The notes under the pieces were generated by a model. The model was not told the DNA's origin and searched no databases. It saw only the letters and a program-made list of their open reading frames with translations. The position numbers and the translations under genes were made by a program. A stretch of 64,000 bases of DNA from Myxococcota bacterium (GTDB lineage Bacteria; Myxococcota_A; UBA9160; UBA6930): assembly GCA_965223415.1 (NCBI GenBank), contig OZ245002.1, forward strand, positions 512,001-576,000, read 5' to 3'. Positions within the stretch are counted from its first letter, which is position 1, and each line of letters begins with the position of its first letter. Positions 24,050 to 52,795 of this stretch are shown here, one piece after another.

Positions 24050-25708
24050 TCAGGCGTCGAGCAGGTGGCGGCGGCCCCGGATCTCGAATCGGGCGCGAAT
24101 GGCGGTGAGGTCGTCGGGCGCCAGGGGCTGGTAGGCGAGCTCCCTCCCGCTTCGCCACCACACCGGGTCGGCGCACTCCCAGTGCTCGCGCCGCAGCACG
24201 CGCTTCAGGATCTTGTTCGTCTCGGTGCTCGGGAGACTCTCGGCGACGCGCAGGTAGCGCGGCGCCCACTTCGTCCCGAGGTCCTCCTGGTCCGCGAGAA
24301 AGGCCGCGAACGCCTCCGGCTCGAAGCCCGCTCCCGGCTCGAGGACCAGCGCCGCCATCACCTGGTCGCCCACCTCGGCGTCGGGTACGGCGTAGACCGA
24401 GGCCAGGGACACGTCGGGGTGGCGGGCGAGGATCCGCTCGATCGGCCCGGCGGCGAAGTTCTCGCCGTCGACGCGCAGCCAGTCGAAATCCCGGCCGGCG
24501 AAGTAGAGGAAGCCGTGCGCGTCCCGGTAGCCGAGATCGCCGCTCCAGTAGATCTGGCCCCGTGTGCGCGCCGCGTCCGCCTCCGGGTGCCGGTAGTAGC
24601 CCTCGAAGGCGGCAGCGGTCTTGACGTTGGCGATCTCACCGATCGCCGCGTCGGCGTTGGCCAGCCGGCCGCTGGCGTCGAAGATCGCGGGCGGGCACTC
24701 CTCGCCGGTGTCCGGATCGAGCACCAGCGTGCCCGGGGTGCCCACGCCGAGGGCACCGGGTGGCGTGTCCGGGGTGCGGCCGATGGAGATCGCGCCCTCG
24801 GTCGATCCGTAGGCGTCGATCACCTGGCAGCCGAAGCGCTCGGCGAAGCGCTCCAGGTCGTGCTCGGCGGCCTCGTTGCCGAAGGCCACCTTCAGTGGGT
24901 TGTCCGCGTCGTCCGGTCGCTCGGGGGTCGCGAGGACGTAGGTCAGCGGCTTGCCAACGTAGTTGAAGAAGGTGATGCCGTAGCGCCGGACGTCCGGCAG
25001 GAAGCCCCTTGCGGAGAAACGGCGCCGCAGCACCATGGTCGCGCCGGCGTGGAGCGCCGGCGCCCACCCCGCCATGAGCTGGTTCGAGTGGAACATCGGC
25101 ATCGCCTGGTAGCAGACGTCGTCGCGGCCGACGCCGCGGGTCTCGCTCACGGTCGCGGCGATCGTCGCGAGTCGGGCCTGGGAGCAGATCGCCGCCTTCG
25201 GCTGCCCCGTCGAGCCGGAAGTGAAGATCAGCAGGTACGGCGCGGCGGGATCGATCGCGGTGTCCGGCGCTGCCGCGCCGGCCTGGGCTTCGACCCGAGC
25301 CCGCCAGTCGGCGCTCTCGATACAGAGCACCCGATCGGCGGGAATTCCGAGCTCCAGCCCGGCCAGGATCGCCAGGTGACGCTCCTCGGTGACCACGAGG
25401 GCGCAATCGGTGTGGGTGATGTCCCGGGTGAGCTCGGCGCCGCGCCGCGTGGGGTTGATCCCGACCAGGGTCGCACCGGCACAGGCGGCCGCGCCCAGCA
25501 GGTAGGAGAACTCCGGGACGTTCTCGAGCAGCACGCCGACGTGGAAGGGCGCCGGAGGCGCCGGCTGCAGCTCCCGGAGCAGCGCGGCCCGGGTGTACGA
25601 AGCGCGCACATGCTCCCGCCAGCTGACGCGCTCGTCCTCGAAGAGGATCGCGGGGTGATCGTCCTCGGCGCGTCGATCGAGGAGGGCCCGTACGGTGGGA
25701 AGCGTCAT
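24050..25708 (-). CDS. Long-chain fatty-acid/steroid--CoA ligase (FadD1/FadD17-like)
   Basis: FTSGSTGQPK, YGSTEG, YWSGDLG and RVDGENF motifs. Confidence 0.9.
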   Translation of the reverse strand: MTLPTVRALLDRRAEDDHPAILFEDERVSWREHVRASYTRAALLRELQPAPPAPFHVGVLLENVPEFSYLLGAAACAGATLVGINPTRRGAELTRDITHTDCALVVTEERHLAILAGLELGIPADRVLCIESADWRARVEAQAGAAAPDTAIDPAAPYLLIFTSGSTGQPKAAICSQARLATIAATVSETRGVGRDDVCYQAMPMFHSNQLMAGWAPALHAGATMVLRRRFSARGFLPDVRRYGITFFNYVGKPLTYVLATPERPDDADNPLKVAFGNEAAEHDLERFAERFGCQVIDAYGSTEGAISIGRTPDTPPGALGVGTPGTLVLDPDTGEECPPAIFDASGRLANADAAIGEIANVKTAAAFEGYYRHPEADAARTRGQIYWSGDLGYRDAHGFLYFAGRDFDWLRVDGENFAAGPIERILARHPDVSLASVYAVPDAEVGDQVMAALVLEPGAGFEPEAFAAFLADQEDLGTKWAPRYLRVAESLPSTETNKILKRVLRREHWECADPVWWRSGRELAYQPLAPDDLTAIRARFEIRGRRHLLDA

Positions 25709-25717
25709 GTCCGCCCT

Positions 25718-26938
25718 CTACACCTCGAGCTCGACGCGGGTGACGCCCTCGAAGAAGATCCGCAGCTCGCGGGTCGCCAGCGGCGCCAGCACGCTGCCCA
25801 TCAAGGGGAGGAGCAGGCCCCGCGCGAGCTCCCCGGCGCGGCCCCGCCGCAGCACCACCTTCGGTGGAAGGGCGGCCAGCGCCTGGATCCGGTCGATCTC
25901 GGGTGCACGCTCCGGCTCGAGCCGCGCGGCCGCCGCGTCGAGAGCAGCTCCGGTCGCACCCGCCCGCAGCGCGGGCACGAGGTGATTGGCGGCGACGACG
26001 GCGTCGCGCAGCGCCACGTTGATGCCCTGTGCGCCCACCGGCGACATGGTGTGGGCGGCGTCGCCGATCAACAGAACACCGGGCCGGGACCAACCCACGA
26101 CGCGATCCGTTGCAGCGTCGAGCAGGAAGGGGCGCGTCACCGCATCCTTGTGGGCGCGCAGGTGCTCACCCAGCTCCGGCCCGACGTGCTCCGCCATGTC
26201 CGCGACCCAGTCCTCGATCCCACGCCGGCGAAGCTCGCCGAATGCGCCCTTCAGGATCACCCACGCCACCTGCAGCTCACCTTCGGGCGCGGGAAGCGCG
26301 ATCAGCAGATGTCCGCGGCCCAGGACGAGCTGGACCCGCTCCTCGGCCCAGGCCTCGGGCCACGGCAGCTTGGCCCAGACGATGTCCATGGGCGCGCCGC
26401 GAACCTGCGCCGTGAAACCTCCGCTCCGACGTACCACCGAGGCGCGCCCGTCGGCACCGACCACGAGCCCGGCGGGCAGCTCCTGCTCCCCGGAGCGCGT
26501 CTGGATGCGTACGCCGGACACGCGCTCGCCCTCGCGAACGAGCTCCTTCACCGCCGCGCCGCGCAGGAAGCGGAAACCCTCGTGCTCCTGGGCCGCGGCC
26601 ACCAGGGCCTCGAGCAGCGCCGGCTGCGAGAGGCTGACCGGCAACCCGCCCAGGCGTTCCGCGTCGAGCAGCGCGGTCAGGGCGCGGCGCTTCCCGTTCA
26701 ACACCTCGATGCGTTCGGGCCGCCGCTGGGGCACCGCTTCCAGGCGATCGCCGAGGCCCAGCGCCTCGAGGGCGTGCCAGCCGCCCGGCATCACCACCTC
26801 GCCGCGGAACTCCCGGGAGAAATCCGACTGACGCTCGACGAGGGTGACCGGGAGCCCGCGTTGGGCCAGCAGCAGCGCCAGCGCCGCGCCGGCCGGACCG
26901 CCTCCGACGATCAGCGTCGCGCCATCCGATTCGCTCAC
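25718..26938 (-). CDS. FAD-dependent monooxygenase/oxidoreductase (UbiH-like)
   Basis: IVGGGPAG, VVGADG and IGDAAHTMSPVGAQGIN motifs. GTG start at 26938; the ORF-track N-terminus is just the palindrome. Confidence 0.85.
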   Translation of the reverse strand: MSESDGATLIVGGGPAGAALALLLAQRGLPVTLVERQSDFSREFRGEVVMPGGWHALEALGLGDRLEAVPQRRPERIEVLNGKRRALTALLDAERLGGLPVSLSQPALLEALVAAAQEHEGFRFLRGAAVKELVREGERVSGVRIQTRSGEQELPAGLVVGADGRASVVRRSGGFTAQVRGAPMDIVWAKLPWPEAWAEERVQLVLGRGHLLIALPAPEGELQVAWVILKGAFGELRRRGIEDWVADMAEHVGPELGEHLRAHKDAVTRPFLLDAATDRVVGWSRPGVLLIGDAAHTMSPVGAQGINVALRDAVVAANHLVPALRAGATGAALDAAAARLEPERAPEIDRIQALAALPPKVVLRRGRAGELARGLLLPLMGSVLAPLATRELRIFFEGVTRVELEV

Positions 26939-26971
26939 CCCGCGACCGTAGCGCGATCCGCCCGCCCTGAG

Positions 26972-27049
26972 CGCAAGCCCGGGGACGTTCCTTGCAGCTT
27001 GCACTTTCGGTCGAAAGCGCAAGTTGCAAGGAACGTCCCCGGGCTTGCG
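26972..27049. repeat. Long palindrome (REP/MITE-like), copy 2
   Basis: 38-nt arms with 2 mismatches around the same GT loop. Near-identical to 23975-24036. Confidence 0.9.
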
Positions 27050-27052
27050 ATA

Positions 27053-28057
27053 TCAGGAGAGGTGCGGGAGGACCTTGCCGACGAAGAGCTCGAGGCTGGG
27101 CCAGGCGACTTCAGGGGGAATGCCACCGCACAGGGGGTAGAGGGGGAAGGCGGCGTAGGGGCCGTCCGCCTCGGCGCGGGCCACGGCTTCGTCGGGGGTG
27201 AGGATCTTGTAGAGGCCTTCGGCGCGAAGGGACTCGACGGTGGTGGCTTCGGACTTGACTGTCGAGGCCTGGCCCTCGCGCTGCCAGCTCCGGTAGCACT
27301 CGGCCTCGTGCAGCAGATGGGGACCGATCTCCGCCCAGGCCCGGTCCGGGTCCTCGGCGAACCAGAACATCTCGCCGGTGCCGGGCGGGTAGACCTGGGG
27401 ATCGGCGACGCCGAGACGCTCGCACTCGGACAGGTAGAGCGCGACCATCTCCTCGTCGTTGTTGGCGGGCTGATAGGGAAGCCCGTAGCGGGCGGCCCGG
27501 CGGGCGCCGCGCTTCGACTGGCCGCCGATCCACACGACGGGATGCGGGTCGGTGTAGGGCGCGGGCGTGACGTGCACCCGGCGGCCCTGCCACTCGAAGC
27601 GCTCGCCCCGCCAGCAGCGCAGCATCACCTCGAGGCACTCGTCGAAGAGCGCCCCGCGGCCCTTCCAGTCCCTGCCGAAGGCCGCGTACTCGTCGGGCCG
27701 GTAGCCGATGCCCGCCGTGATGCCGGTGCGCCCGCGGCTCAGCTGGTCGAGGACGACCAGATCCTCCGCGAGCTTGACCGGATCGTAGAGAGGGACAAGC
27801 AGGGCTCCGACCTGGATGCGCACGTTCTGCGTGCGGCCGGCGACGGCCCCCATCATCGCGACGGGAGAGGGCAGAAAGCCGTCGTCGATGCCGTGGTGCT
27901 CCGACAGGCTGATCGTCCGCGCGCCGTGCTCGTCCGCATAGGCCGCCATCTCGAGGGCGGTGCGGTAGAGCGCGTCCGGCCTCGCCCGCCCCGGCTTGCC
28001 TGTGCCCATGAGCGTCTGCGGCGCGCGCATGTCGAAGCGCAGCATCCAGGTCACCAT
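27053..28057 (-). CDS. LLM-class flavin-dependent oxidoreductase
   Basis: SEHHG..DGFLPSP, KLAEDLVVLDQLSRGR and GIGYRPDEY motifs. Confidence 0.85.
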   Translation of the reverse strand: MVTWMLRFDMRAPQTLMGTGKPGRARPDALYRTALEMAAYADEHGARTISLSEHHGIDDGFLPSPVAMMGAVAGRTQNVRIQVGALLVPLYDPVKLAEDLVVLDQLSRGRTGITAGIGYRPDEYAAFGRDWKGRGALFDECLEVMLRCWRGERFEWQGRRVHVTPAPYTDPHPVVWIGGQSKRGARRAARYGLPYQPANNDEEMVALYLSECERLGVADPQVYPPGTGEMFWFAEDPDRAWAEIGPHLLHEAECYRSWQREGQASTVKSEATTVESLRAEGLYKILTPDEAVARAEADGPYAAFPLYPLCGGIPPEVAWPSLELFVGKVLPHLS

Positions 28058-28061
28058 CGGT

Positions 28062-28874
28062 TCACTTCCCCTTCCAATCCCAGGCCTCGCCGGAGAGCCA
28101 CGCCCGCATCGCACCGGCCGCGTCCTCGCTGCGCATCGCCTCCTCGAAAGCCTCCTGCTCCAGAGCCAGCCCTTCGCGAAGCGTGCCGTCATGGGCGGCG
28201 TGGATCGCGCGCTTGGCGGCGGCAAGGGCGATCGGCGCCCGACCCGCCAGGTCGGCGGCGAAGGCGTCCACCTCCGCGCGGAAGCGATCCGGCGGAAAGA
28301 CCCGGTGCACGAGCCCCAGTGTCAGTGCCTCCTGGGGCCCGACCAGCTGGCCGTGGAGGATCAGGTCCAGCGCCCTCGCCGTGCCGAGCAGCCGGCTCAT
28401 GCGCTGGGTGCCGCCGGCGCCGGGAATGATCCCGACCGTCGTCTCCGGGAGACCGAGCCCGAAGGCACCGTCCATCGCGAGCCGGAAGTCGCAGGCCAGC
28501 GCCAGCTCGAGGCCTCCGCCGGCGGTGCTGCCGTTGATCGCCGCGACGACCGGAAAGTGCTGCGCCTCCAGGCTGAGGCAGAGCTGGTGCATGGCGTGGA
28601 GGCGTGGCGCGTCGGCGGCGGCATCGGCCTCGGACACGGCCCCGGCCTGCTCGGAGGCCTGAGCCAGCTCGCCCACCTCGTAGTGCGCAACGAACACGCC
28701 CTCCCCGCCCCCGCTGAGCACCAGGACCCGCACGGTCTCGTCGGCGGAGAGCTCGGTCACCAGCCGCCGGAGCTCCTGCACACCGGCGGCCGTCAGCGTG
28801 TGCGTGGGCGGGTTGGAGAGGGTGCAGCGAACGATGCCGCCGTCCCGTTCGACGTCGAGATGCCGGTCGCTCAA
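28062..28874 (-). CDS. Enoyl-CoA hydratase/isomerase family protein
   Basis: AAINGSTAGGGLELALACDFR and PETTVGIIPGAGGTQR motifs. TTG start overlaps the upstream stop. Confidence 0.9.
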   Translation of the reverse strand: MSDRHLDVERDGGIVRCTLSNPPTHTLTAAGVQELRRLVTELSADETVRVLVLSGGGEGVFVAHYEVGELAQASEQAGAVSEADAAADAPRLHAMHQLCLSLEAQHFPVVAAINGSTAGGGLELALACDFRLAMDGAFGLGLPETTVGIIPGAGGTQRMSRLLGTARALDLILHGQLVGPQEALTLGLVHRVFPPDRFRAEVDAFAADLAGRAPIALAAAKRAIHAAHDGTLREGLALEQEAFEEAMRSEDAAGAMRAWLSGEAWDWKGK

Positions 28875-29311
28875 GGGCGCTCCTTCCGCTCCGAGGGCAG
28901 GGTGTCGAGGACGTGGAAGCGGACCTGCCCGCGTGCCACGAGCTTTCCGTCGCCGCGGGTGATCCGAACCTCCCACAGCTGCTGGCTGCGGCCGAGGTGC
29001 AGCGGCAGGCCCTCGGCGAGCAGCTCGCCTGCGCTGTGGCTCCGGAGGAAGTCGGTGGTGTTCGAGACGCCGAGGACACCGGTTCCACCGGCGGCCATGA
29101 CCACCCGCCCCGCGCCGTAGCTCGCAACCGCTTCCACGACAGAGCAGTGGACCCCGCCGTGCAGGACGCCCATGGGCTGGTGGTGGCGGGCGTCGGCGGG
29201 GAGCCGGGCCCGCACCCGCTCCGGGGTGACCTCGAGCATCTCGATGCCGAGGGCGCGGGCCCAGGCGTCCTGCTCCGGGACGCCCTCGGGCCACTCGGCA
29301 GCTTCACTCAC
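28871..29311 (-). CDS. PaaI family thioesterase (MenI/EntH-like)
   Basis: HHQPMGVLHGG motif. GTG start with GGAGGAG RBS. Confidence 0.85.
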   Translation of the reverse strand: MSEAAEWPEGVPEQDAWARALGIEMLEVTPERVRARLPADARHHQPMGVLHGGVHCSVVEAVASYGAGRVVMAAGGTGVLGVSNTTDFLRSHSAGELLAEGLPLHLGRSQQLWEVRITRGDGKLVARGQVRFHVLDTLPSERKERP

Positions 29312-29383
29312 GCACGGCTCCTCCAAGCTCGATCGGGGCGTACGATACCGCGGGCGGCCCATCAGCGCGTCGTGGGCGGCCCC

Positions 29384-29859
29384 TCAGCGCGCCGTGGGCG
29401 GCGGCTCCGACGACGTGACGATCACCGTTCGGCGCTCCGCGATGCGCCAGCCCCGAGACGTGCGTCGGTAGCGATCGCGGTACTCCACCGGGGCGAGGAT
29501 CCGGGGCGCGCCTTCGGCCGAGAGGATCGTCGCGTAGCTCGTGCCCCGGGCGGCCTCGCTGCCGAGCACCTCCACCGCTGGTTCGTCACGACGTGCCGCA
29601 CGGCGCTTTCCGCCATGCGCGGGCCGGCGCTCTCGCGGAGCGCCGTGTGTCTGCGGCTCTCTCGGCCGCCGAACTCCATCACTCCGTCCTCGATGAAGAG
29701 CCCGACCCAGGCTTCCAGATCACCGGCATCGCGGTACTCCGCGCAGCGCACCTGGAGCTCCCGGCAGGCGCGCTCGGCCTCGTAGCTCGCGTGGACGTCG
29801 CCGCCGAAGCTCGTGCAGCCGAGCCCCAGCAGGAAGACCCATGCGATCGGTACCCGCAC
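29384..29859 (-). pseudogene. SnoaL/NTF2-like lipoprotein, frameshifted near 29575
   Basis: N-half (..WVGLFIEDG..VRHVVTNQ) and C-half (VEVLG..ARGTSY..YRDRYRRTSRGWRIAER) lie in different frames. May be a sequencing error. Confidence 0.65.
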
Positions 29860-29862
29860 GGG

Positions 29863-30723
29863 CTAGAGGAGCTGCGTGTCCGGCTCTTCGACCACGGTGT
29901 TCTCGATCGCCCCGACGCCCTCGATCTCGACCCGCACCACGTCGCCGGCCACCAGCCACTTCGGCGGCTTCATCGCCACGGCGACGCCGCCGCAGGTTCC
30001 GGTCGAGACCACGTCGCCGGGCTCGAGGGTGAAGGCCGTGGAGAGGTGCTCGACCAGGTCGAAGCAGTCGAAGATCAACTCCTTCGTGTTGCTGTGCTGC
30101 CGCACCTCGCCGTTGACAAGGGTCTTGAGCTCGTGGCCCGAAGGCGTCCCACCCAGCTCGTCCGCCGTGACGAGCGCCGGGCCGAGCGGGCAGTGGGTAT
30201 CGAAGGACTTGCCCATCATCATCGTCGGCGTGCGCAGCTGCCAATCGCGCACGGACACGTCGTTGCAGACCGTGTAGCCCGCGATCACCTCGTGGGCACG
30301 GTCCTTCGGCACGTGGCGACAGCGCCGCCCGATCACGATGGCCAGCTCGCCCTCGTAGTCGAGCAGCTCCGAGACCCTGGGACGGTGGATCGGGTCGAAG
30401 GGCCCGACCACCGCCGTCGACTGCTTGTTGAAGATGATCGGAACGGTCGGCGTCTCGCGGCCGGTCTCGGCCACGTGATCCGCATAGTTGAGGCCCACCG
30501 CCAGGATCTTCGGCGGCCGCGCGATCGGGGCCTCGAGGCGAACGTCGGGGAGCGCGAGCTCGGGCCCCTCGGCACGGCCCGCCCGGGCCAAGGCGTCACC
30601 GCCGGCCTCCAGCAGGGCGAGCATCGTCACCGGGAGTCCGCTCCCGCCGAGATCGACGACGCTCTCGCCGTCCAACCGTCCGAGGCGGGTGGTGCCCGCG
30701 TGGGTGAAGCTGACCAGTCGCAT
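29863..30723 (-). CDS. Fumarylacetoacetate hydrolase family protein
   Basis: GLNYADH, LDYEGEL, NDVSVRDWQ, GKSFDT and TLEPGDVVSTGT motifs. Confidence 0.9.
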   Translation of the reverse strand: MRLVSFTHAGTTRLGRLDGESVVDLGGSGLPVTMLALLEAGGDALARAGRAEGPELALPDVRLEAPIARPPKILAVGLNYADHVAETGRETPTVPIIFNKQSTAVVGPFDPIHRPRVSELLDYEGELAIVIGRRCRHVPKDRAHEVIAGYTVCNDVSVRDWQLRTPTMMMGKSFDTHCPLGPALVTADELGGTPSGHELKTLVNGEVRQHSNTKELIFDCFDLVEHLSTAFTLEPGDVVSTGTCGGVAVAMKPPKWLVAGDVVRVEIEGVGAIENTVVEEPDTQLL

Positions 30724-30732
30724 GGGGGTCTC

Positions 30733-31389
30733 CTAGGGGGTGGGCGGGTTGCGGTTGAGGCGTTCGGCGGCGGCGCGGAGGCCCACCTCGAAGAGCTCGA
30801 TGGCAGTCCGAACGTCGAAGCTGTCTCCCTCCATGTGGCGGACCAGGAAGCCGCCGTCCGCCATGATCATGCAGAGATCGACGAGATGCTCGCGGGCCTT
30901 GCGGCGAGCCGCAGGCTCCTCGATGCGGAGGAGGGGCTCGACGCGGGCCGCCATCGCGGTCTTCAGGAGGTCGCGATACCCGGCCAGGGCCTCGGCCAGG
31001 CCCGGATCCACGTCGCGGCGCTCCAGGGCCAGCAGCATCATGAGTCGCACGTGCTCCGGCCGCTCTTCGATGCGGTCGGCGATGAACGAGGCCGGGACGT
31101 CGCCGCTCATCGCGAACTGCTCGTGGAACTGCTCCGCCGCGCGCCGCGCCACCGCCAGCACGAGCCCCTCCTTGCTCTCGAAGTGCCAGTAGAGCGTGGG
31201 CGGCACCACGTCCGCTGCCTTGCAGATGGCAGCGATGCGGGTGCCGGAGTAGCCGTGACGGCTGAAGAGCTCGGACGCGGCCTCGAGGATGCGCTCGCGA
31301 TTGCGCTCGGCGTCGGCCTGGCGGCCGGGCTTCAAGGGACCCTCGAGGGGCGGCCGGCGAGAGGAGCTCGGGTTTGCATCGGACGGCAA
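30733..31389 (-). CDS. TetR/AcrR family transcriptional regulator
   Basis: RERILEAASELFSRHGY...TLYWHFESKEGL HTH. Divergent from the SDR operon. Confidence 0.9.
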   Translation of the reverse strand: MPSDANPSSSRRPPLEGPLKPGRQADAERNRERILEAASELFSRHGYSGTRIAAICKAADVVPPTLYWHFESKEGLVLAVARRAAEQFHEQFAMSGDVPASFIADRIEERPEHVRLMMLLALERRDVDPGLAEALAGYRDLLKTAMAARVEPLLRIEEPAARRKAREHLVDLCMIMADGGFLVRHMEGDSFDVRTAIELFEVGLRAAAERLNRNPPTP

Positions 31390-31421
31390 GTCGCAATATA
31401 GTGACCGCTACAGAACTTGCC
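31385..31421. promoter_or_regulatory. Candidate TetR operator / divergent promoter
   Basis: Inverted repeat GGCAAGT-N23-ACTTGCC enclosing the imperfect palindrome TAGTGACCGCTA and an AT-rich AATATA. Confidence 0.4.
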
Positions 31422-31442: not shown

Positions 31443-32222
31443 ATGGATCTCGGAATCGAAGGCCGCCGGGCCATCGTGTGCGCCTCCAGCCGCGGGCTCG
31501 GCCGGGCCTGTGCCACGGCCCTCGCCCGGGAGGGAGCGGCGGTCGTGGTGAACGGCCGCACCCGGGACACCTTGCAGGCCACGGCGAAGGAGATCGCCGA
31601 GGCGACCGGCGGCACGGTCAACCCCGTGGTGGGCGACCTGAACACCGAGGAGGGCCGGGCCGCCCTTCTGGCCGCCTGCCCGGAGCCCGACATCCTGGTC
31701 AACAACAACGGCGGCCCGCCGCCGACCCCGTTCCAGAACACGACCCGGGAGCAATGGCAGGACGCCCTCGAGTCGAACCTGATGGCGCCGCTGCTCCTGA
31801 TCCAGGCGGTGCTGCCGGGAATGCGGGAGCGGCGCTTCGGACGCATCGTGAACATCACGTCGGCCATGGTCCGCGCGCCGCACGCCGTGATGGGCCTCTC
31901 GACCACCGCGCGCACCGGGCTCACGGCCCTGTGCAAGGGGCTCTCCCGGGAGGTCGCGCCGGACAACGTGACCCTCAACAACCTGCTGCCCGAGCGCTTC
32001 GATACGGACCGGCAGCTCCAGATGGCCAATGTGGTGATGAAGCTGCGCGGAATCAGCTACGAGGAGGCGCGGGCGGAGCAGGCGGCGAGCATCGCGGCGG
32101 GCCGGCTCGGCGATCCCGCGGAGCTGGGCGATACCTGTGCCTTCCTGTGCAGCGCCCAGGCGGGCTTCCTCACCGGGCAGAACCTCTCCCTCGACGGCGG
32201 CACCTTCCCGGGCACGCTCTGA
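31443..32222 (+). CDS. SDR family oxidoreductase
   Basis: ASSRGLG, DILVNNNGGP, GRIVNITS and GQNLSLDGG motifs. GGGGAG RBS. Confidence 0.85.
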   Translation: MDLGIEGRRAIVCASSRGLGRACATALAREGAAVVVNGRTRDTLQATAKEIAEATGGTVNPVVGDLNTEEGRAALLAACPEPDILVNNNGGPPPTPFQNTTREQWQDALESNLMAPLLLIQAVLPGMRERRFGRIVNITSAMVRAPHAVMGLSTTARTGLTALCKGLSREVAPDNVTLNNLLPERFDTDRQLQMANVVMKLRGISYEEARAEQAASIAAGRLGDPAELGDTCAFLCSAQAGFLTGQNLSLDGGTFPGTL

Positions 32223-33919
32223 TGGGCGACACCGATGTCTCCACGCTGCCGGTCCTGATCGTCGGCGCCGGCCCGATCGGCCTCACCGCCTCGATCCTCC
32301 TCTCCCGCCTTGGCGTGGCCCACGAGATCGTCGAGCGACGCGACGCGCTCCATCAGTCGCCCCAGGCCCATGTGATCTCCGCTCGTACCCTGGAGGTCTT
32401 CCGGGCCGCCGGCGTCGATCCGGAAGCCCTGGCGGCAGTCTCGACCCCGGCCCAGGACACCGGCTGCGTCCGCTACGTGTACTCGCTGGCGGGCCCCGAA
32501 CTCGGCGTGCTCCCGATCGTCGATGCGGAGCGGGCCGCCAGCGTGCTGGACGCGACGCCCTGCGTGCCGACGAACATTCCCCAGCACCGGCTCGAACCGG
32601 TGCTGCTCGATGCCGCCGAGAAGGCCGGCGGGCACGTGCGTTTCGGGCACGCTTGGGAGGGCAGGGAGGCCGACGCGGAAGGCGTGACCTCGATTCTGCG
32701 CACGCCGGAGGGCGGGACCCGCCGCGTGCGCAGCCGCTACCTGCTGGGCTGCGACGGTGCCGGCAGCCGCGTGCGCAGGGCCCTCGGCATCGAGCTCGTC
32801 GGCCCCACCGAGCTGCAGCGCTTCGCGATGGTCGACGTCGCGGTGAACCTGCGGCCCGTGGTGGGGGAGCGCACCGCCCTCCTCTACTGGAGCCTCGACC
32901 CGGCCGAGCCCGGGGTGATGATCGCCCACGACCTGGGCGAGCGCGTCGTGTTCATGCTCATGCAGCCGCCCGGGCAGCCGACCCCGACCCCCGACCAGGT
33001 GCGCGAGCGGATCGCGGCCCGGATCGGCACCGAGACCCGCTTCGAGGTCCTCCGCGTCGACGAGTGGGTGATGACCGCCCAGGTCGCCGAGCGCTACCAG
33101 GAAGGTCGCGCGCTCCTGATCGGCGACTCCGCCCACCGCTTCCCGCCGACGGGCGGGCTGGGCATGAACACCGGCGTGGCCGACGCGTTCAACGCCGCGT
33201 GGAAGCTCGCGGCGGTGCTGGAGGGCCGGGCCGAGCCGTGGCTCCTCGACACCTACGGCGCCGAGCGCCGCGCCGTGGCCCAGGCCAACACCGACCAGAG
33301 CGTCGCCAACTTCCAGCAGACCGGACGCATCCTGGGCGCCCTCGCGCTGAGACCCGAGGACGACCTCGACGCCCAGCGGGCCTGGGTGCGCAGCCTTCCG
33401 GACGATCCGGAGCGGCAGGCCCGCCTCCAGCAGGCCATCGACGACGACGCACGACACTACGACCTGCTCGACCTGGACCTGGGCGCGCGCTACGGGAGCG
33501 AGGCCGTCGTCCCGGACGGAACGCCGGAGCCGGAGTGGGCGGCGGGCACCTACGTCGCCACGTCGCGTCCCGGCGCGCGGCTGCCCCACGCCTGGCTCGA
33601 GCGGGACGGCCAGCGCGTCTCGACCCTCGACCTGGTGCCTCTGGACCGTCCGCTCCTGCTGCTCGGTCGCGAGGGCGACGCCTGGACGCGAGCGGCGGAG
33701 GCGCTCGGCGTGACCACGGCGATGGTCGACGGCGAGCGCCTCGCGGACGCGGACGGCCGCTGGAGGGAGCTGCGCGAGGTCGGCGAAGACGGCGCCCTGC
33801 TCGTCCGCCCGGACCACCACGTGGCCTTCCGGGCAGCGTCGCTCCCCGGCGACCCGGCCGCGAGCCTGCGGCATGCACTCACCTCCGGTCTCGGCCGGCC
33901 CCTGGAGGCAACCTCATGA
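32222..33919 (+). CDS. FAD-dependent aromatic monooxygenase (PheA/TfdB-like)
   Basis: IVGAGPIG, GCDGAGS, GDSAHRFPPTGGLGMNTG, RPGARLPHAW and LVRPDHHVA motifs. Confidence 0.9.
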   Translation: MGDTDVSTLPVLIVGAGPIGLTASILLSRLGVAHEIVERRDALHQSPQAHVISARTLEVFRAAGVDPEALAAVSTPAQDTGCVRYVYSLAGPELGVLPIVDAERAASVLDATPCVPTNIPQHRLEPVLLDAAEKAGGHVRFGHAWEGREADAEGVTSILRTPEGGTRRVRSRYLLGCDGAGSRVRRALGIELVGPTELQRFAMVDVAVNLRPVVGERTALLYWSLDPAEPGVMIAHDLGERVVFMLMQPPGQPTPTPDQVRERIAARIGTETRFEVLRVDEWVMTAQVAERYQEGRALLIGDSAHRFPPTGGLGMNTGVADAFNAAWKLAAVLEGRAEPWLLDTYGAERRAVAQANTDQSVANFQQTGRILGALALRPEDDLDAQRAWVRSLPDDPERQARLQQAIDDDARHYDLLDLDLGARYGSEAVVPDGTPEPEWAAGTYVATSRPGARLPHAWLERDGQRVSTLDLVPLDRPLLLLGREGDAWTRAAEALGVTTAMVDGERLADADGRWRELREVGEDGALLVRPDHHVAFRAASLPGDPAASLRHALTSGLGRPLEATS

Positions 33920-34512
33920 GCTCGATTCCCGCTCCTGCCCGCGAACGCGGGCGAATCGCTCCCGCCAAGCTCGCCCACATCGTCCTGCGCACCACTTTCG
34001 AGCGCTTCGCGGCACTCGTGGCTTGGTACAAGACCGTGCTCGAGGCGAAGGCGGCCTTCGAGAACGCGGCCATCAGCTTCATGACCTACGACGAGGAGCA
34101 TCACCGCCTGGCCATCGTCGCCATCCCCGGCCTCGGCGAGAAGGTCACCCACTCGGTGGGGGTGGATCACGTCGCCTTCACCTACGCGTCCCTGCCCGAC
34201 CTGGTGGCGACCTACGAGCGCCTGAAGGCGGAGGGCATCACGCCCCGCACGGTGATCCACCACGGGCCGACGATGTCCCTCTACTACCTGGACCCGGATC
34301 GCAACCAGGTGGAGCTCCAGATCGACGTGTTCGAAAAGCTGGAGGACGCGGCGACCTTCTTGGCGTCCGGTCACTTCGAGAAGAACCCCATCGGAGCCGT
34401 CTTCGACTTCGAGGACATCTGCCGGCGCTACCACGACGGTGAGCCGGTGGAGGAGCTGATCCGCCCGATCGAGGGCCCGATCCCCGGACCGGACGCCTTC
34501 GGCGAACACTGA
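33916..34512 (+). CDS. VOC/glyoxalase family protein (extradiol dioxygenase-like)
   Basis: LAHIVLRT, YDEEHHR, DHVAFTY and HGPTMSLYYLDPDRNQVELQ motifs. Confidence 0.85.
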   Translation: MSSIPAPARERGRIAPAKLAHIVLRTTFERFAALVAWYKTVLEAKAAFENAAISFMTYDEEHHRLAIVAIPGLGEKVTHSVGVDHVAFTYASLPDLVATYERLKAEGITPRTVIHHGPTMSLYYLDPDRNQVELQIDVFEKLEDAATFLASGHFEKNPIGAVFDFEDICRRYHDGEPVEELIRPIEGPIPGPDAFGEH

Positions 34513-34535: not shown

Positions 34536-35600
34536 ATGACACTCGAACCCGCCGAACACAGCGCCGCGGGCCTGGACACGGCCTGGGCCGGCCTCGCCGC
34601 TCCGGGTAGCTGGTTCACCGGCGCCGAGCGCGTCGGGATCGCCCGCGAGGCACGCGCCGCCAGGGCCTGCGGGCTTTGCGCCGAGCGCAAGGCGGCGCTC
34701 TCGCCCTACGCGGTCGGCGGCGAGCATGCCTCCCCCGTCGTCGATGCGGTGCATCGGATCACCAGCGACCCGGGGCGGCTCAGCCAGAAGTGGTACGACG
34801 AGACGCTGACGGCGGGGCTCAGCGCCGAGCAGGTGGTCGAGATCACGGGAGTCGTCGGCGTCGTCACCGTGGCCGATACGCTGGCGCGAGCCCTGGGCCA
34901 GCCACTGCGCGAGCTACCTGTGCCCTCCGCCGGTGAGCCCGGCCGCACGAAGGTGCCCGGCGCCGTCGTGGCCGGGGGCTGGGTTCCGATGGTGGCCGTC
35001 GACCGTGCCGAGGGCATGGTCGGGATGGTCTACGAGCAGATCGGCCAGGCCGCGGGCTTCGTCTTCAACGTGGTGCGCGCCCTGACCTCGGTGCCCGAGG
35101 CGATGCAGGGCTTCTTCAGCGCCTTCGGGCCGAACTACCGCACCCACGGCCCGGTCGGCCCCGGCGGCCTCGACCGCCCGCAGGTCGAGCTGCTGGCGTC
35201 CTCCACCTCGGCGATCAACGACTGCTTCTATTGAACGGTCTCCCATGCATCGCTGCTCCGTGCGAGCGGCCAGCAGACCGGGACCGAGATCGACGTGCGG
35301 ATCGCGACGGGCCGGGCGACGAGCGTCGACGGCGGCGTGCCCCACGGCGAGGTGCTGCGCTGCTTCGCCGCGGCCGTGCTGGGCGACGGGGACGGGCTCG
35401 ACGAAGCCCGCGCGGCCTGCGTCGAGGCGGTGGGCGCGAGCGCGACCGTCCAGGCCGCCTCCATCATCGCGAGCTTCGACGGGATCAACCGCGTCGCCGA
35501 CGCCACCGGAATCCGCCTCGATGCGGAGACCGCCCAGGGGATGGGCGTGGGCATCACCGAGGAGCTCGAGCTCGGCGAGCTGGCCGCGGCCCGGGCTTGA
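34536..35600 (+). CDS. AhpD/CMD-like alkylhydroperoxidase-related selenoprotein (Sec at TGA 35232-35234, residue 233 of 354)
   Basis: ORFs 34536-35234 and 35295-35600 share a frame, separated only by one TGA. Readthrough gives QVELLASSTSAINDCFY-U-TVSH, the AhpD CxxC..H motif with Sec. SECIS-like hairpin downstream. Confidence 0.8.
35252..35270 (+). promoter_or_regulatory. Putative bacterial SECIS element
   Basis: Stem GCTGCTC/GAGCGGC (one G-U pair) with loop CGTGC (G at loop position 2). 24 nt lie between the UGA and the loop. Confidence 0.6.
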
Positions 35601-40516: not shown

Positions 40517-41526
40517 AGGTCCTCGTTACCGGCGGCACCGGCTTCACCGGCTCCCACTCGGTGCGCGCCCTGGTCCAGGCGGGTCACGAGGTCCGTCTGC
40601 TGGCGCGCAGCGCGGAGAAGGTGAGGCGGGTGTACGGGCCCCTCGGCCTGGCGATGGAGGACGTCGTGCTGGGCGACATGACCGATCCGTCCCCGGTGGG
40701 CGAAGCGCTCGAGGGCTGCGACGGCGTCCTCCACGCCGCGGCCATGGTGGATCTGAAGGCCCGGAACGCGAGCCAGGTGATCGCCACGAACACCACCGGC
40801 GTGGCGAACGTGATCGGCGCCGCGGTGGAGCGCGGCATCGAACGCATCGTCTACGTCTCGAGCCTGGCGATCTTCTTCCGGCCGGGCTGCCCGCCCCTGC
40901 ACACCGGGATGTCCATTCCGCCGGCGTCCACAGCCTACGGCGAGTCGAAGACCCGCGCCGAGATCCAGGTCCGTACGCTCCAGGCCCGGGGGGCGCCGAT
41001 TCACGTGACCTATCCCGTGGGCATCATTGGACCGGACGATCCCGACATGAGCGACGCGAACCACGCGGTCTACTCCTGGTTCCGGGACCTGACCGTCCGC
41101 ACTTCCAGCGGCTTCCAGATCGTGGACGTGCGTGACGTCGCCGACCTGCACTGCCGGCTCCTCGAGCACGAAGGCCCGCCGGGTCGCTTCGCCGCAGCCG
41201 GCGAGACCGTGGCCTGGAACGACATGCCCGACTTCATCGAGTCGATCACCGGCACCCGACTCCGCTACCTGACGATCCCGGGGCCCCTGCTGCGCGCTCT
41301 GGGCCGCGTGGGCGACGCCGTCAAGCGCTTCCGGGACTTCAGCTTCCCGCTCACCCACGAGTCGATGACCTTCGCGACCCAGTGGCCGGGGACCGAACGG
41401 CCCGAGGCCAGCGAGGCCCTGGGCTTGCGCTGGCGACCGGCCCGGGAGACCTACGAGGACACGCTGCGTTGGATGTATTGCGCGGGCCACCTAACAGCCG
41501 AGCAGGTCGGGCGGCTGGCCGACTGA
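40513..41526 (+). CDS. NAD-dependent epimerase/dehydratase (extended SDR)
   Basis: GTGA overlap with the upstream stop. VTGGTGFTG, YGESK and VDVRDVA motifs. Confidence 0.85.
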   Translation: MKVLVTGGTGFTGSHSVRALVQAGHEVRLLARSAEKVRRVYGPLGLAMEDVVLGDMTDPSPVGEALEGCDGVLHAAAMVDLKARNASQVIATNTTGVANVIGAAVERGIERIVYVSSLAIFFRPGCPPLHTGMSIPPASTAYGESKTRAEIQVRTLQARGAPIHVTYPVGIIGPDDPDMSDANHAVYSWFRDLTVRTSSGFQIVDVRDVADLHCRLLEHEGPPGRFAAAGETVAWNDMPDFIESITGTRLRYLTIPGPLLRALGRVGDAVKRFRDFSFPLTHESMTFATQWPGTERPEASEALGLRWRPARETYEDTLRWMYCAGHLTAEQVGRLAD

Positions 41527-41622
41527 TCCGGGTTTCGGGGAAAGGCCCGACGCCTCCTCCGGCAGCCGCCCCACTCCACCGCGCGTTTTCCTCCGGGTTC
41601 TCCGGATCGACGGCTTGCTCCG

Positions 41623-41650
41623 TCAAGGAGGTCTCGGAGTGCGCCGAAGA
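41623..41650 (+). promoter_or_regulatory. Sigma-28 (FliA)-like promoter
   Basis: TCAAG-N15-GCCGAAGA upstream of the GGDEF-EAL gene RBS. Confidence 0.4.
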
Positions 41651-41672
41651 CGGCCGAGGGGAGACCGGCCAG

Positions 41673-43781
41673 GTGGAGGATCACACCAGGAAGCGCCCGC
41701 GGGTGCTCGTCGTCGATGACGACCCGGGGGTCTGTCGGACCCTTGAGAGGGCCCTCGAACGCGACGGCCTCGAGGCCCAGATCGCGAGAGACGGGGAGTC
41801 GGCGTTGCGCGCCTTCGACGAGCGGCCGCCCCAGCTCGTGCTCCTCGACGTCCAGATGCCGGGCCCCTCGGGCTTCGACGTCTGCGGGACCATCCGCGCC
41901 CGCCCAGGCGGAGCCGAGCTGCCGATCGTCATGATGACCGGCATGGAGGACATCCAGTCGATCCAGCGTGCCTACGAAGCGGGCGCCACCGACTTCGTGA
42001 CCAAGCCGATCCAGTACCTCGTGCTCTCCCACCGGCTCCGCTACCTGCTGCGCGCCGGCTCCACCCTGCACCTGCTGCGGGAAGCTCAGGACCGGGTGAT
42101 CGACCAGCAGCGCCTCGCCCAGATCGGAAGCTGGGAGCTCGATCTCGAGACCGGGCGCTTCCACGGGTCGGACGTGCTCTGGGAGATCCACGGCATCCCG
42201 CGACCGGATGCCAGCTCGGGCATGCGGGTGCTCGCCGACTCAATCCACCCGAGCGACCGCGAACGGGTACAGGAAGCGATCCGGCGCTGTCGCGAACAGG
42301 GGGGCGTGGTGCGCTTCGACCAGCGCATGCGACGCGTCGACGGCTCCGAACGCATCCTCCACTGCCAGGTGCGGCTCGGCTTCGACCCGGAAGGCGTGCC
42401 GGAGCGCCTGGAGGGCGTGGCCCAGGACCTCACCGAGCGACGGCGCACGGAGCAGCAGATCCGCTTCCTGTCTTCCCACGACGCGCTCACCAGCCTGGGC
42501 AATCGACGTCTGTTTCGCGAACGCCTCGATCTCGCGCTTCGGCAGGCGCGCCAGGGCGGCTGGAAGGCCGGCATCCTCTACCTTGACCTGGACCACTTCA
42601 AGCGCATCAACGAGACCTTCGGCCACTCGGTGGGGGACTCGCTCCTCGCGGAGGTGGCCAACCGTCTGGTGATGAGCGTGCGCGGCGCCGACCTGGTGAC
42701 CCGCGACGACGACTCGGCGATCTCCCGCCTTGGCGGTGACGAGTTCTCCATCCTGCTGCCGCGGGTGCGGGACGCCGAGAGCCTCGCCACCGTCGCCCGC
42801 CGGATCCTGCGCGCGCTCGCCCGCCCCTTCTCCCTGGAGGGCCACGAGGTGGTCGTCGGGGGCAGCGTCGGCATCACGGTCTTTCCCAGCGACGGCGACG
42901 ATCCGGAGACGCTGCTCCGCAACGCGGACACCGCCATGTACGCGGCGAAGGAGCAGGGGCGCAACACCTATCAGTTCTACGCGGAGCGGATGAACGAGCT
43001 CTCCCTGCGACGCCTGATCCTCGAGGGCAAGCTGCGCCGGGCCCTGGAAGAGGGGCAATTCGAGCTCTACTACCAGCCGAAGGTGAGCCTCGCCTCCGGC
43101 CGGATCGAAGGCTGCGAGGCCCTGGTGCGTTGGCACGAACCGGAGCTCGGCATGGTCGGTCCCGGCGACTTCATCCCGGTCGCCGAGGAGACGGGCCTGA
43201 TCGTCGGGCTCGGCGAATGGGTCCTGGAGGAGGCGTGCCGGCAAGCCGCCGATTGGAGCCGCCGGGGCGTCTGCGAGGTGCCCGTGGCCGTCAACCTCTC
43301 GCCCGAGCAGTTCCGCAGGCCCGGCCTCGCGCGGCGCGTGGCCCGTGTCGTCCAGGAGGCGGGAATTCCCCCGGAGCGACTGGAGCTGGAGATCACGGAG
43401 GGGGTCATGCTCCACGACACGGAGCAGGTGATCCGGGAGCTGGACGAGATGCGCGCCCTCGGCATGCGGATCGCCCTCGACGACTTCGGGACCGGCTACT
43501 CGTCGCTCTCCTACGTGCGCCGCCTGCCCGTCGATACCCTCAAGATCGACCGCACCTTCATCATGGACATCGACGAGGACCCGGAAGACGCCGCCCTGAC
43601 CCGGGCGATCATCGCCCTCGGGCACGTGCTGGGCCTGCGCAGCGTCGCGGAGGGCGTCGAGACCGAAGCCCAGCGCGCCCGGCTCGCCAGCTGGAGCTGC
43701 GACCAGATGCAGGGCTTCCTCTTCAGCCGCCCGCTCCCGGCAGCGGAGCTCGAGGCCTTGTGGCGGAGCGAGGAGACCTAA
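41673..43781 (+). CDS. REC-PAS-GGDEF-EAL c-di-GMP signalling protein
   Basis: VLVVDDD..LLDVQMP..FVTKP receiver, IHPSDR PAS, RLGGDEF, EAL and DDFGTGYSS. GTG start after GAGGGGAG. Confidence 0.9.
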   Translation: MEDHTRKRPRVLVVDDDPGVCRTLERALERDGLEAQIARDGESALRAFDERPPQLVLLDVQMPGPSGFDVCGTIRARPGGAELPIVMMTGMEDIQSIQRAYEAGATDFVTKPIQYLVLSHRLRYLLRAGSTLHLLREAQDRVIDQQRLAQIGSWELDLETGRFHGSDVLWEIHGIPRPDASSGMRVLADSIHPSDRERVQEAIRRCREQGGVVRFDQRMRRVDGSERILHCQVRLGFDPEGVPERLEGVAQDLTERRRTEQQIRFLSSHDALTSLGNRRLFRERLDLALRQARQGGWKAGILYLDLDHFKRINETFGHSVGDSLLAEVANRLVMSVRGADLVTRDDDSAISRLGGDEFSILLPRVRDAESLATVARRILRALARPFSLEGHEVVVGGSVGITVFPSDGDDPETLLRNADTAMYAAKEQGRNTYQFYAERMNELSLRRLILEGKLRRALEEGQFELYYQPKVSLASGRIEGCEALVRWHEPELGMVGPGDFIPVAEETGLIVGLGEWVLEEACRQAADWSRRGVCEVPVAVNLSPEQFRRPGLARRVARVVQEAGIPPERLELEITEGVMLHDTEQVIRELDEMRALGMRIALDDFGTGYSSLSYVRRLPVDTLKIDRTFIMDIDEDPEDAALTRAIIALGHVLGLRSVAEGVETEAQRARLASWSCDQMQGFLFSRPLPAAELEALWRSEET

Positions 43782-50583: not shown

Positions 50584-52795
50584 CGCGGGCTGCCACGGCG
50601 AAGCGGGCGCCGTCACCCCGGGCGGGCTCGACGCTTCCGATGCGGCGCGCGCCCTCGTCGCCGGCTGCGTGCAAGGCGGCCAGGGCCTCGTCGGCGTCAC
50701 CCGCGGGCACGGCGAGCAGCAAGCCCCCGGAGGTCTGGGGGTCGAAGAGCAGCTCCGCCTCGGGCCGTCCCTTGGCGCGCGCGTCCCACGCCAGGCCGCG
50801 CCGGCCTTCGGCGTTCTGCTCGTGGAAGCTGCTGCGCACACCGGCGGCCAGCAGCGCGGTCGCGCCGGGCAGCGCGGGCAGTGCGTCGACGTCGACCGTC
50901 GCCGCCTGCTTGCCCGCGTCGAGCATCTCGGCCAGGTGTCCCGCGAGGCCGAAGCCCGACACGTCGGTGGAGGAGCGGGCGAAGCGCAGCGCGACCTCGG
51001 CCGCCGCTGCGTTGGAGCGCACCATGTGGCGGAGCGCCGCCACGAGCCACGGGCCGCGGGCGCGGCCTTGCATGTCCGCGGCGAGGACCACGCCGGTGCC
51101 GAGTGGTGCGGTCAGGAGCAGCGCGTCGCCGGGCCGGGCCGTGGACAGGGGAAGCGGCCCCGGCCCGCTGGCATCGCCGGTGACCGACAGGGCCACGAAG
51201 AGCTCGGGCCCCTGGGTCGAGTGGCCGCCGACCAGGCTCACGCCCAGCGGATCGAGCGCGGCGCGCAGGCCCGACAGGACCTGGAAGAGGGTCTCCTCGG
51301 CCCGGTCCGCGTCCTCTTCGGGAACCGTCACCAGGGCGAGGGCGTGGCGGGGCGTGCCGCCCTTCGCCTGCACGTCGCTCACCGCGTTGACGGCCGCCAC
51401 CCGGCCGACCCACCACGGATCGTCGGTGAAGGCGCGGAAGCCGTCAACGGTGGCCAGCACCACGTCGCCGGCGGGCGTACGCAGGGCGGCCGCGTCGTCG
51501 GGTGCGTCGAGGCCGACCACCACCCGCTCGTCCGACGGGGCGGGCGCGAGGCGGGCCAGGGCCCTCGCAAGAGGGCTCGCGCCGACCTTCGCCGCGCATC
51601 CTCCGCAGGGCATGTCCTCCATTCCCATCTCCTCGGGCGTCGGGAACGGCGCCGCGGGCGCGCCCTCGGGACCGAGCACCTGGAAGCGCTCCATGAAGCG
51701 GCGATCGATGCGGTCCTTCCATCGCCACACCCAGGGGCCCGAGAAGGCGAAGCCCCACTTCCCGCCCAGGGCGCGCCCGCCCCCCAGGTTGAGGAGCGCG
51801 AGGAAATCGCGCTGGGGCCGGTGGGTGCGGAGCGGCCGGCCCTGCAGGGCCGCGCGCAGGTTCGCATCGAGGGTCGGGCCCGCGCGCACGGCGTGGACGC
51901 CCGCCTTCGGAACCCACGGGTGGTCGACGAAGGAGGCGCAGTCTCCGGCGGCGAAGAGCGCGTCCTCGCCTTCGACCCGGAGGTCCGACGTCACCCGAAG
52001 GAAGCCGGCCGCATCCTTCGGGAGGTGCGAGGCCGCGAGGAGCGGCACGGGCGCTGCTCCGGTGGCCCAGACCACGAGCTCCGCCGGGAGGACCTGGCCG
52101 TCCTCGAGTCGCACGCCGTCGGCCTGCACGGCGGAGACGCGAGCGCCGGTGCGCAGCTCGATACCACGAGCCACCGCCTCCTGCTCGGCACGTCGCCGCA
52201 GGCGAGCCGAGGAGCCCGGCAGCAGCGGATCGTCACTCAGGAGCTGGACCGCGGGCTCGAGCCCGGCGGCGCGGCAGCGCGCGTCCAGCGAGAAGGCCAG
52301 CTCGGTGCCCGCGGCGCCGCCACCGACGATCAGCACCCGCGGCCGGCCGACGGCGCGGAGGCGGCCCAGGACGGCGTCGACGCGGCCGACGAAGTCGGCG
52401 ATCGGGCGGGTGGCGAGGGCGTGCTCGCGGACACCGGGAAGATCGGCGCCCCGCACCGTGCTGCCCACGTCCAGGCTCGCCACGTCGTAGCGGATGGGCG
52501 CGCGGCCCTCGAGCGCGATGGAACGGGTGGCGGGGTCGATCCGCGTCGCCGCTGCGAGGATCACCCGGGCCCGGGCGCGCCGGGCCAGGGGGACGACGTC
52601 GATCTCCGCTTCGGCGGCGCCGTAGTCGCCGGCGACAACGCCGGGAACCATGCCGGAGTAGAGCGCGACCGGCCGGTCGAGCACGACGCTGAGCCGCACG
52701 TCGGGAAGCGGGTCCATCATCCAGCGACGCAGGACCTGGACGTGGGCGTGGCCGCCGCCGACCAGCATGAGGTCGGCACGGGGCGTAGCGTTCAT
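50576..52795 (-). CDS. selD: Selenide, water dikinase fused to an N-terminal pyridine nucleotide-disulfide oxidoreductase domain
   Basis: GGGHAH, YSGMVPG, GGGAAG and AAGDCA, then CGGCAAKVG, DDAA, NAVSDV, GGHS, TDVSGFGLAGHL and DPQTSGGLL. Confidence 0.9.
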   Translation of the reverse strand: MNATPRADLMLVGGGHAHVQVLRRWMMDPLPDVRLSVVLDRPVALYSGMVPGVVAGDYGAAEAEIDVVPLARRARARVILAAATRIDPATRSIALEGRAPIRYDVASLDVGSTVRGADLPGVREHALATRPIADFVGRVDAVLGRLRAVGRPRVLIVGGGAAGTELAFSLDARCRAAGLEPAVQLLSDDPLLPGSSARLRRRAEQEAVARGIELRTGARVSAVQADGVRLEDGQVLPAELVVWATGAAPVPLLAASHLPKDAAGFLRVTSDLRVEGEDALFAAGDCASFVDHPWVPKAGVHAVRAGPTLDANLRAALQGRPLRTHRPQRDFLALLNLGGGRALGGKWGFAFSGPWVWRWKDRIDRRFMERFQVLGPEGAPAAPFPTPEEMGMEDMPCGGCAAKVGASPLARALARLAPAPSDERVVVGLDAPDDAAALRTPAGDVVLATVDGFRAFTDDPWWVGRVAAVNAVSDVQAKGGTPRHALALVTVPEEDADRAEETLFQVLSGLRAALDPLGVSLVGGHSTQGPELFVALSVTGDASGPGPLPLSTARPGDALLLTAPLGTGVVLAADMQGRARGPWLVAALRHMVRSNAAAAEVALRFARSSTDVSGFGLAGHLAEMLDAGKQAATVDVDALPALPGATALLAAGVRSSFHEQNAEGRRGLAWDARAKGRPEAELLFDPQTSGGLLLAVPAGDADEALAALHAAGDEGARRIGSVEPARGDGARFAVAARGG

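Follow-up and report, generated by a model that had tools for sequence, protein, structure and literature searches.

Introduction

AhpD-like selenoproteins with a CxxU motif were reported in 2005 from the Sargasso Sea, in a paper whose accessible sections also list a four-member family called "hypothetical protein 1", likewise with CxxU, and, in those same sections, report no functional evidence for that family (PMC1088965). Two groups, AhpD-like 1 and AhpD-like 2, are listed in the accessible part of the 2008 Global Ocean Sampling (GOS) study (PMC2398784). According to a table from a 2026 review, of which an excerpt was available, the curated family NF041238 is the "hypothetical protein 1" of the Sargasso Sea selenoproteome (PMC13188914). 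In the full-text literature searched, the expression "alkylhydroperoxidase-related" was not found together with "selenoprotein".

This work concerns a locus of a Myxococcota genome that consists of one contig of 5.83 Mb. The window, i.e. the whole stretch of 64,000 nucleotides that was analyzed, corresponds to C1:512001-576000 of that genome. We are highly confident that positions 34536..35600 of its (+) strand form a single gene, and that it codes for a predicted cytoplasmic thiol/selenol oxidoreductase of 354 residues, a member of the AhpD-related CFYUT selenoprotein family with selenocysteine (Sec) at U233. The selenoprotein is real, but it belongs to a family that has been in print since 2005 and is curated as NF041238, and in this sense it is already known.

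Results

Reading frame and family assignment

The 232-aa ORF at 34536..35234 (+) has the C-terminus SAINDCFY, followed by a TGA codon at 35232..35234. Past this internal TGA, the only one before the end of the gene, the frame gives TVSHASLLRASGQQTGTEID... and the next stop is another TGA at 35598..35600. GC3 is 0.87 on the 5′ side of the internal TGA and 0.94 on the 3′ side, so that both parts resemble the coding sequence of a 72% G+C genome. The initial annotation had proposed that the frame stays open up to 35600 and yields one 354-aa AhpD/CMD-like selenoprotein with C230-x-x-U233 followed by a His, and with a second CGLC motif near the N-terminus. The coordinates and the translation agree with the open frame, the comparative data given below agree with the single selenoprotein, and the second motif corresponds to C45-G-L-C48 (34668..34679, +) of the read-through product, which also contains C230-F-Y-U233.

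The read-through product was recognized by the NCBIfam equivalog model NF041238.1 (AhpD_rel_CFYUT, alkylhydroperoxidase-related (seleno)protein) with 370.8 bits and E = 7.3e-111, the curated cut-off being 175 bits. Residues 9–349 were aligned to model positions 5–355 of 357, i.e. along its full length, and the C-F-Y-U/C-T motif that names the family is present as C230-F-Y-U233-T234. The Pfam model PF02627 (CMD; gathering score 23) scored 26.2 bits with the read-through product, at residues 209–246, and 13.8 bits, under the gathering score, with the 232-aa stub. The E-x11-CxxC-x3-H signature of this domain is present, with E218, C230, U233 and H237 invariant among homologues, and the modelled fold agrees with it; the active-site signature E218-(x11)-C230-F-Y-U233-T-x-x-H237 of the C-terminal AhpD/CMD domain occupies 35187..35246 (+). 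Two other models of the superfamily were matched below their cut-offs: TIGR01926 (peroxid_rel) with 67.2 bits at residues 149–327 (cut-off 81.8), of which the read-through protein is a relative and not a member, and TIGR00777, for canonical AhpD, with 19.4 bits (cut-off 191.95).

Selenocysteine machinery and genetic code

The initial annotation had pointed to selA, selB and selC as the genes on which the reading of the UGA as Sec depends. All of them were found in the genome, in addition to selD, each one above its curated cut-off. The tRNA-Sec, with anticodon tca, scored 69.4 bits (cut-off 47), selA 495.9 bits (cut-off 267.9) and selB 288.2 bits (cut-off 242.25); these three are scattered on the chromosome outside the window. 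The gene of selenophosphate synthetase, selD, which would act in trans, is inside the window at 50702..51610 (−), 15 kb downstream of the selenoprotein gene, with AIRS and AIRS_C domains and 252.9 and 252.6 bits for TIGR00476 (cut-off 125). Directly upstream of selB and on the same strand lies serS (442.2 bits; L010:23-3411, equivalent to G000:C1:1702434-1705822), a pairing that places the enzyme charging tRNA-Sec with serine beside the Sec elongation factor.

Concerning the meaning of TGA in this organism, it is the commonest stop in the window, where it ends 21 of 31 ORFs, including the selenoprotein gene itself and the VOC gene upstream of it. TGA being the usual stop, the code is not reassigned.

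The hairpin downstream of the UGA

The candidate SECIS hairpin lies at 35252..35270 (+). Its 5′ arm is GCUGCUC (35252-35258), its loop CGUGC (35259-35263) and its 3′ arm GAGCGGC (35264-35270). As is expected of a selenoprotein gene, the hairpin is placed just 3′ of the UGA and has a G in a small apical loop. It had been described at the outset as a 7-bp hairpin with G early in the loop, 24 nt past the UGA: the hairpin itself and the G, at loop position 2, stood up to the analysis, and the distance of 24 nt is correct for the loop but not for the stem, which begins at 17 nt.

The window sequence alone did not fold better than shuffled sequences (z = −0.47 for 69 nt and −1.78 for 31 nt), and a search of 35100-35400 against Rfam, with E up to 10, returned no SECIS model and only a chance lncRNA match. 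Since the single-sequence energy is not significant in this 72% G+C DNA, the hairpin was judged on comparative counts. RNAalifold, run on the homologues, predicted independently exactly the same seven pairs. In 31 copies of the gene, standard pairs fill 99.1% of the pair cells and both bases have changed in two of the pairs (CG<->AU in 6 and GC<->CG in 2). In a set of 81 sequences, 79 of them distinct, pairing is kept in 96.7% of the pair cells and such double changes occur in three pairs, 21 cells in all, the compensatory changes being of the types CG<->AU, GC<->CG/AU and CG<->UA. When the partner was slid by 1–3 columns as a control, pairing was 26–61%. The observed covariation score was reached by 0/500 shuffles with both the 31- and the 81-sequence sets, which are related and overlapping, so that these counts overstate independence; they should not be taken as probabilities, given the relatedness of the sequences and the conserved peptide that is encoded by the stem.

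Part of the conservation of the stem could come from that peptide, LLRAS, and the peptide alone can hardly account for several coupled coding changes. Leu240 changes to Met (CUG to AUG) coupled with the change of Gly or Ser245 to Val or Ile (GGC/AGC to GUC/AUC), and the synonymous change of CUC to CUU at Leu241 is coupled with G to A at the paired third codon position. With the exception of two, the 81 sequences all have AGC or AGU as the codon of Ser244, and UCN is absent from this site. All of them (81/81) have the G at loop position 2 (column 29).

These data bear on the possibility that the UGA is read through as Trp, Cys or Gly, by near-cognate decoding or under a changed code, instead of as Sec. 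Sec insertion at U233 is what we infer from genomic sequence, and to that extent another residue could be imagined at position 233. This alternative is highly improbable in view of the complete Sec pathway of the genome, the hairpin located at SECIS distance, the use of TGA as terminator in 21 of the 31 ORFs of the window (among them the selenoprotein gene and its upstream neighbor), and the fact that the only sense codon other than TGA found at the site in homologues is that of Cys, the usual partner of Sec.

Comparative test of the UGA

In a collection of 5.8 billion proteins, 93 matches were obtained. Ninety of them are ORFs of about 227–297 aa that end directly after C-x-Y (CFY in 81, CVY in 7, CLY in 1 and CAY in 1). 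Two others, P0066 (367 aa) and P0067 (383 aa), are full-length homologues, single proteins with CFYCT and hence with Cys at position 233; the last one, P0094, is an unrelated weak match. The entry that the collection itself holds for the genome is a 232-aa stub (P0002), which bears out the earlier expectation that standard callers would split the gene. Altogether 90/93 database relatives, including the entry of the window's genome, are cut at the UGA into stubs of about 240 aa, which are without the catalytic Sec and the His and a third shorter than the protein.

Whole genomes were also examined. Thirty-four of 61 relatives, including the window's own genome, contain a match at E ≤ 1e-20. All the genome matches (49/49) have exactly one in-frame TGA each, and one of them has a TAG besides. 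In the 31 copies, from 30 loci, that were kept from this search, the TGA is always (31/31) followed by T/A-x-x-H-A-x-L/M-L-R. A second genome set was composed of one genome per species; related loci were not found in it with the single protein as the query, and scanning with the family alignment gave 80 loci. The Sec site has TGA in 79 of them and TAA in one (L081). The 80 loci come from Myxococcota, Gamma- and Alphaproteobacteria, Binatia, Acidimicrobiia, Gemmatimonadaceae, Methylomirabilota, Opitutales, Spirochaetaceae, Chloroflexota and Hydrogenedentota. The 61-genome and the 80-locus sets overlap, so that their counts are not additive. Cys forms amount to 2/93 of the database matches and to 0 of the gene copies in genomes. 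As judged from these sequences, the family is widespread across phyla and Sec looks nearly obligatory in it.

In a full-length alignment of 33 sequences, E218, C230, Y232, U/C233 and H237 are invariant. Mean column conservation is 0.63 for residues 234–254, which lie between the two ORFs delimited with translation table 11, and 0.57–0.60 elsewhere; by position relative to the UGA, it is 0.59–0.60 before it and 0.63 and 0.57 after it. T234, H237, A238, L241, R242 and S244, all of them encoded 3′ of the UGA, are each at least 90% conserved. The initial annotation had anticipated Cys or TGA at position 233 of the homologues and conservation of the linker 35235-35294 at the protein level, and both were found, the former in the TGA and Cys counts given above and the latter in the score of residues 234–254. 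Homologues ending at FY with TAA or TAG, which it had named as the contrary outcome, did not appear apart from the TAA of L081.

A decayed gene was considered as well, i.e. one in which a Cys codon (TGC or TGT) turned into TGA and left a truncated 232-aa product plus an untranslated remnant. One base change suffices to convert TGC into TGA, gene callers do give the 232-aa stub, the homologue L081 has TAA at the site, and the genome holds a second copy lacking about 56 N-terminal model positions. However, the TGA is kept in 49/49 and 79/80 copies belonging to many phyla, and the downstream frame, peptide and codon bias are intact. Independent decay would not recur at one codon, and the presence of the same TGA across phyla led thus to the rejection of decay as extremely improbable. 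As to two separate genes, one for a 232-aa protein up to the TGA and another for a 101-aa protein from the GTG at 35295, both ORFs exist under table 11, but this alternative can be given practically no weight when the intervening residues 234–254 show the same level of conservation as the rest, the junction lies inside both the CMD domain and the NF041238 match, one modelled helix crosses it, and the Cys-form homologues of 367 and 383 aa are single proteins. The preferred reading is a single gene with UGA decoded as Sec.

Some individual loci deserve comment. In L081, from an Alphaproteobacteria MAG, TAA replaces TGA at the Sec position (L081:2164-2166) and the downstream frame and the hairpin are intact, which may reflect a recent inactivation or a sequencing error. 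In L041 (G020:C12:603852-606093), two members of the family stand back to back in opposite orientations with 187 bp between them, and each has its own TGA. In L110, from a Myxococcota MAG, a Cys-type CMD-like gene (CGYCSTAH) occurs in the same 4-kb locus as a Sec-type member. The window's genome has a second NF041238 copy at G000:C1:5146758-5147627 (−), equivalent to L131:1321-2955 (−), with 379.6 bits, which also has CFY-TGA and the hairpin. Its match is limited to model positions 57–356: the N-terminal stretch with CxLC is missing and a short preceding piece is found in another frame. This could be due to a deletion with frameshift or to an assembly error.

Structural model

The AlphaFold2 model, built from a 32-sequence alignment, is all-helical, with pLDDT 95.1 and pTM 0.94. 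In it, a single helix, 231–248, starts at CxxU and runs through residue 233. With the whole model as the query, Foldseek gave no match at E ≤ 0.001 (the best one had 1.3e-3). The C-terminal half matched the AhpD-core structures 6k40 and 2prr, with TMt 0.78–0.80 and 22–24% identity, and VIA-align gave Z scores of 14.6 for 2pfx, 13.8 for the CMD protein 3lvy and 13.2 for the debrominase Bmp8. The match to 6k40 was also seen at the sequence level, in residues 156–326, across U (E = 5.9e-8). The best match of the whole model by VIA-align was human Sestrin2 (5cuf_A), with Z 15.5 and an rmsd of 3.5 Å for 229 residues in the range 2–327.

The N-terminal 149 residues were also modelled alone (pLDDT 94.2). 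The structures ranked 1–7 against this domain are all of the AhpD/CMD type, with Z from 8.1 to 5.6, and are followed by unrelated helical proteins at 4.8; against Sestrin2 the N-domain alone gave Z 4.4, a value that is common among helical folds. The Z values of the N-domain (up to 8.1) and of Sestrin2 lie within the range that the tool calls common for helical proteins, and the assignment of the N-domain is for this reason probable only. With this qualification, the model depicts two CMD-like domains in tandem. C45 is predicted just before helix 46–53, with C48 in its first turn, and C230 and U233 are predicted in like positions at helix 231–248; neither Glu nor His is found at the N-domain positions that match E218 and H237. 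The four residues C45, C48, H64 and H73 occur together in 32/33 sequences, and L050 has none of them. As H64 and H73 are lost together with both Cys in L050, they may be part of the same center as C45 and C48.

Gene neighborhood

Upstream of the selenoprotein gene there are a divergent TetR gene, a gene for an FAD aromatic-ring hydroxylase (32210-33916) and a VOC/glyoxalase gene (33919-34509) that ends 23 nt 5′ of the selenoprotein ATG; downstream, sulfotransferase and DUF1214 genes converge on it. The location directly after monooxygenase and VOC genes had been correctly noted in the initial annotation, which had added that the protein may detoxify peroxide from uncoupled flavin chemistry. 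This latter proposal did not fare equally well. In 29 other loci, within flanks of about 1.5 kb, a VOC gene adjoins the selenoprotein gene in 2 (L024 and L028), a hydroxylase gene in 1 (L024), and a sulfotransferase gene in four close relatives. Since the link to hydroxylase and VOC is conserved, within those flanks, only in the closest relatives, it was rejected as a general functional property. Removal of peroxide from uncoupled flavin chemistry is possible in the lineage of the window, as a role that the comparison does not support.

Other parts of the window can be mentioned. The minus-strand cluster at 24053-31407, beside the hydroxylase/VOC pair, resembles a catabolic island for aromatic or acyl-CoA compounds, with genes for an AMP-binding ligase, an FAD monooxygenase, a luciferase-like monooxygenase, a 4HBT thioesterase, a protein of the FAA-hydrolase family and TetR. 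At 41136-43778 (+) there is a response regulator-PAS-GGDEF-EAL protein, of up to 881 aa in the open frame, which likely acts in c-di-GMP turnover.

Discussion

Proposed mechanism

By analogy with the standard bacterial pathway, SelB-GTP carrying Sec-tRNA(Sec) would bind the 7-bp hairpin as the ribosome reaches the UGA, so that Sec would go in at codon 233 and termination would be avoided. In the modelled protein, the C-terminal domain contains the E218...C230-x-x-U233-x3-H237 center at the start of helix 231–248, and U233 takes the place of the second Cys in the alignment with the CxxC of AhpD. By analogy with the AhpD family, U233 would be the nucleophile that attacks a peroxide or an oxidized partner, and E218 and H237 would act as a proton relay. 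C230 would then resolve U233 as a selenenylsulfide, to be recycled either by an external reductant or by the N-terminal dithiol. A more specific version, in which the tandem of CMD-like domains, with its Sestrin-like outline, uses C45-x-L-C48 as a second center (a redox relay or a metal site) that recycles the C230/U233 selenenylsulfide within the chain, seems rather unlikely, and it is put forward as a speculation. The near-obligatory character of Sec could mean that the substrate is other than a simple peroxide, by analogy with the CMD-fold debrominase Bmp8.

Comparison with known systems

Sestrin2 (5cuf), the best whole-model match, is the one that spans both domains of the model. Presumably, Sestrin2 is made of two AhpD-like lobes in one chain. 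The identity is 9%, with no link at the sequence level, and the Z score is common among helical proteins, so the resemblance is one of architecture only.

The structures 6k40 (alkyl hydroperoxide reductase AhpD of D. radiodurans), 2prr and 2pfx superpose on the C-terminal half, about residues 145–340. In the sequence alignment, NDCFYCTVSH is opposite NRCVYCAVSH. They differ from the window protein in being single-domain Cys proteins of about 190 aa, 22–24% identical to it, without Sec and without the N-terminal domain. The AhpD of Mycobacterium tuberculosis (1gu9/1knc) has the same fold (Z 7.8) and the same E...CxxC...H signature. HMMER aligned residues 190–247 of the query with 91–147 of this AhpD, with U233 opposite Cys133, which we take to be the nucleophile, assisted by a Glu/His proton relay. 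In contrast to the window protein, the mycobacterial one is 177 aa long and has Cys instead of Sec; its model, TIGR00777, is missed by the window protein, and the AhpC/lipoamide partner belongs to the mycobacterial system.

The AhpD-like selenoproteins of marine metagenomes, of the COG2128/TIGR01926 type, share with the window protein, as far as the accessible parts of the two papers go, the CMD/AhpD fold, CxxU and a SECIS with G in a small apical loop (PMC1088965, PMC2398784). Unlike them, the window protein is below the TIGR01926 cut-off and has an extra N-terminal CMD-like domain, probable as assigned from the model, with its own CxLC.

The closest system is NF041238, equated in the 2026 review table with "hypothetical protein 1", to which the window protein is alike in the full-length match to the model, the literal C-F-Y-U-T, the size of about 355 aa and CxxU as printed. 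There is nothing different in kind: the window protein is a further member of it, and its nearest copy in the searched genomes is 71% identical. The matter is mainly one of annotation, in which the correct reading adds one selenoprotein to the selenoproteome of a Myxococcota genome; the probable two-domain architecture, the second conserved cluster of CxLC and His, and the near-exclusive use of Sec make the family mildly interesting.
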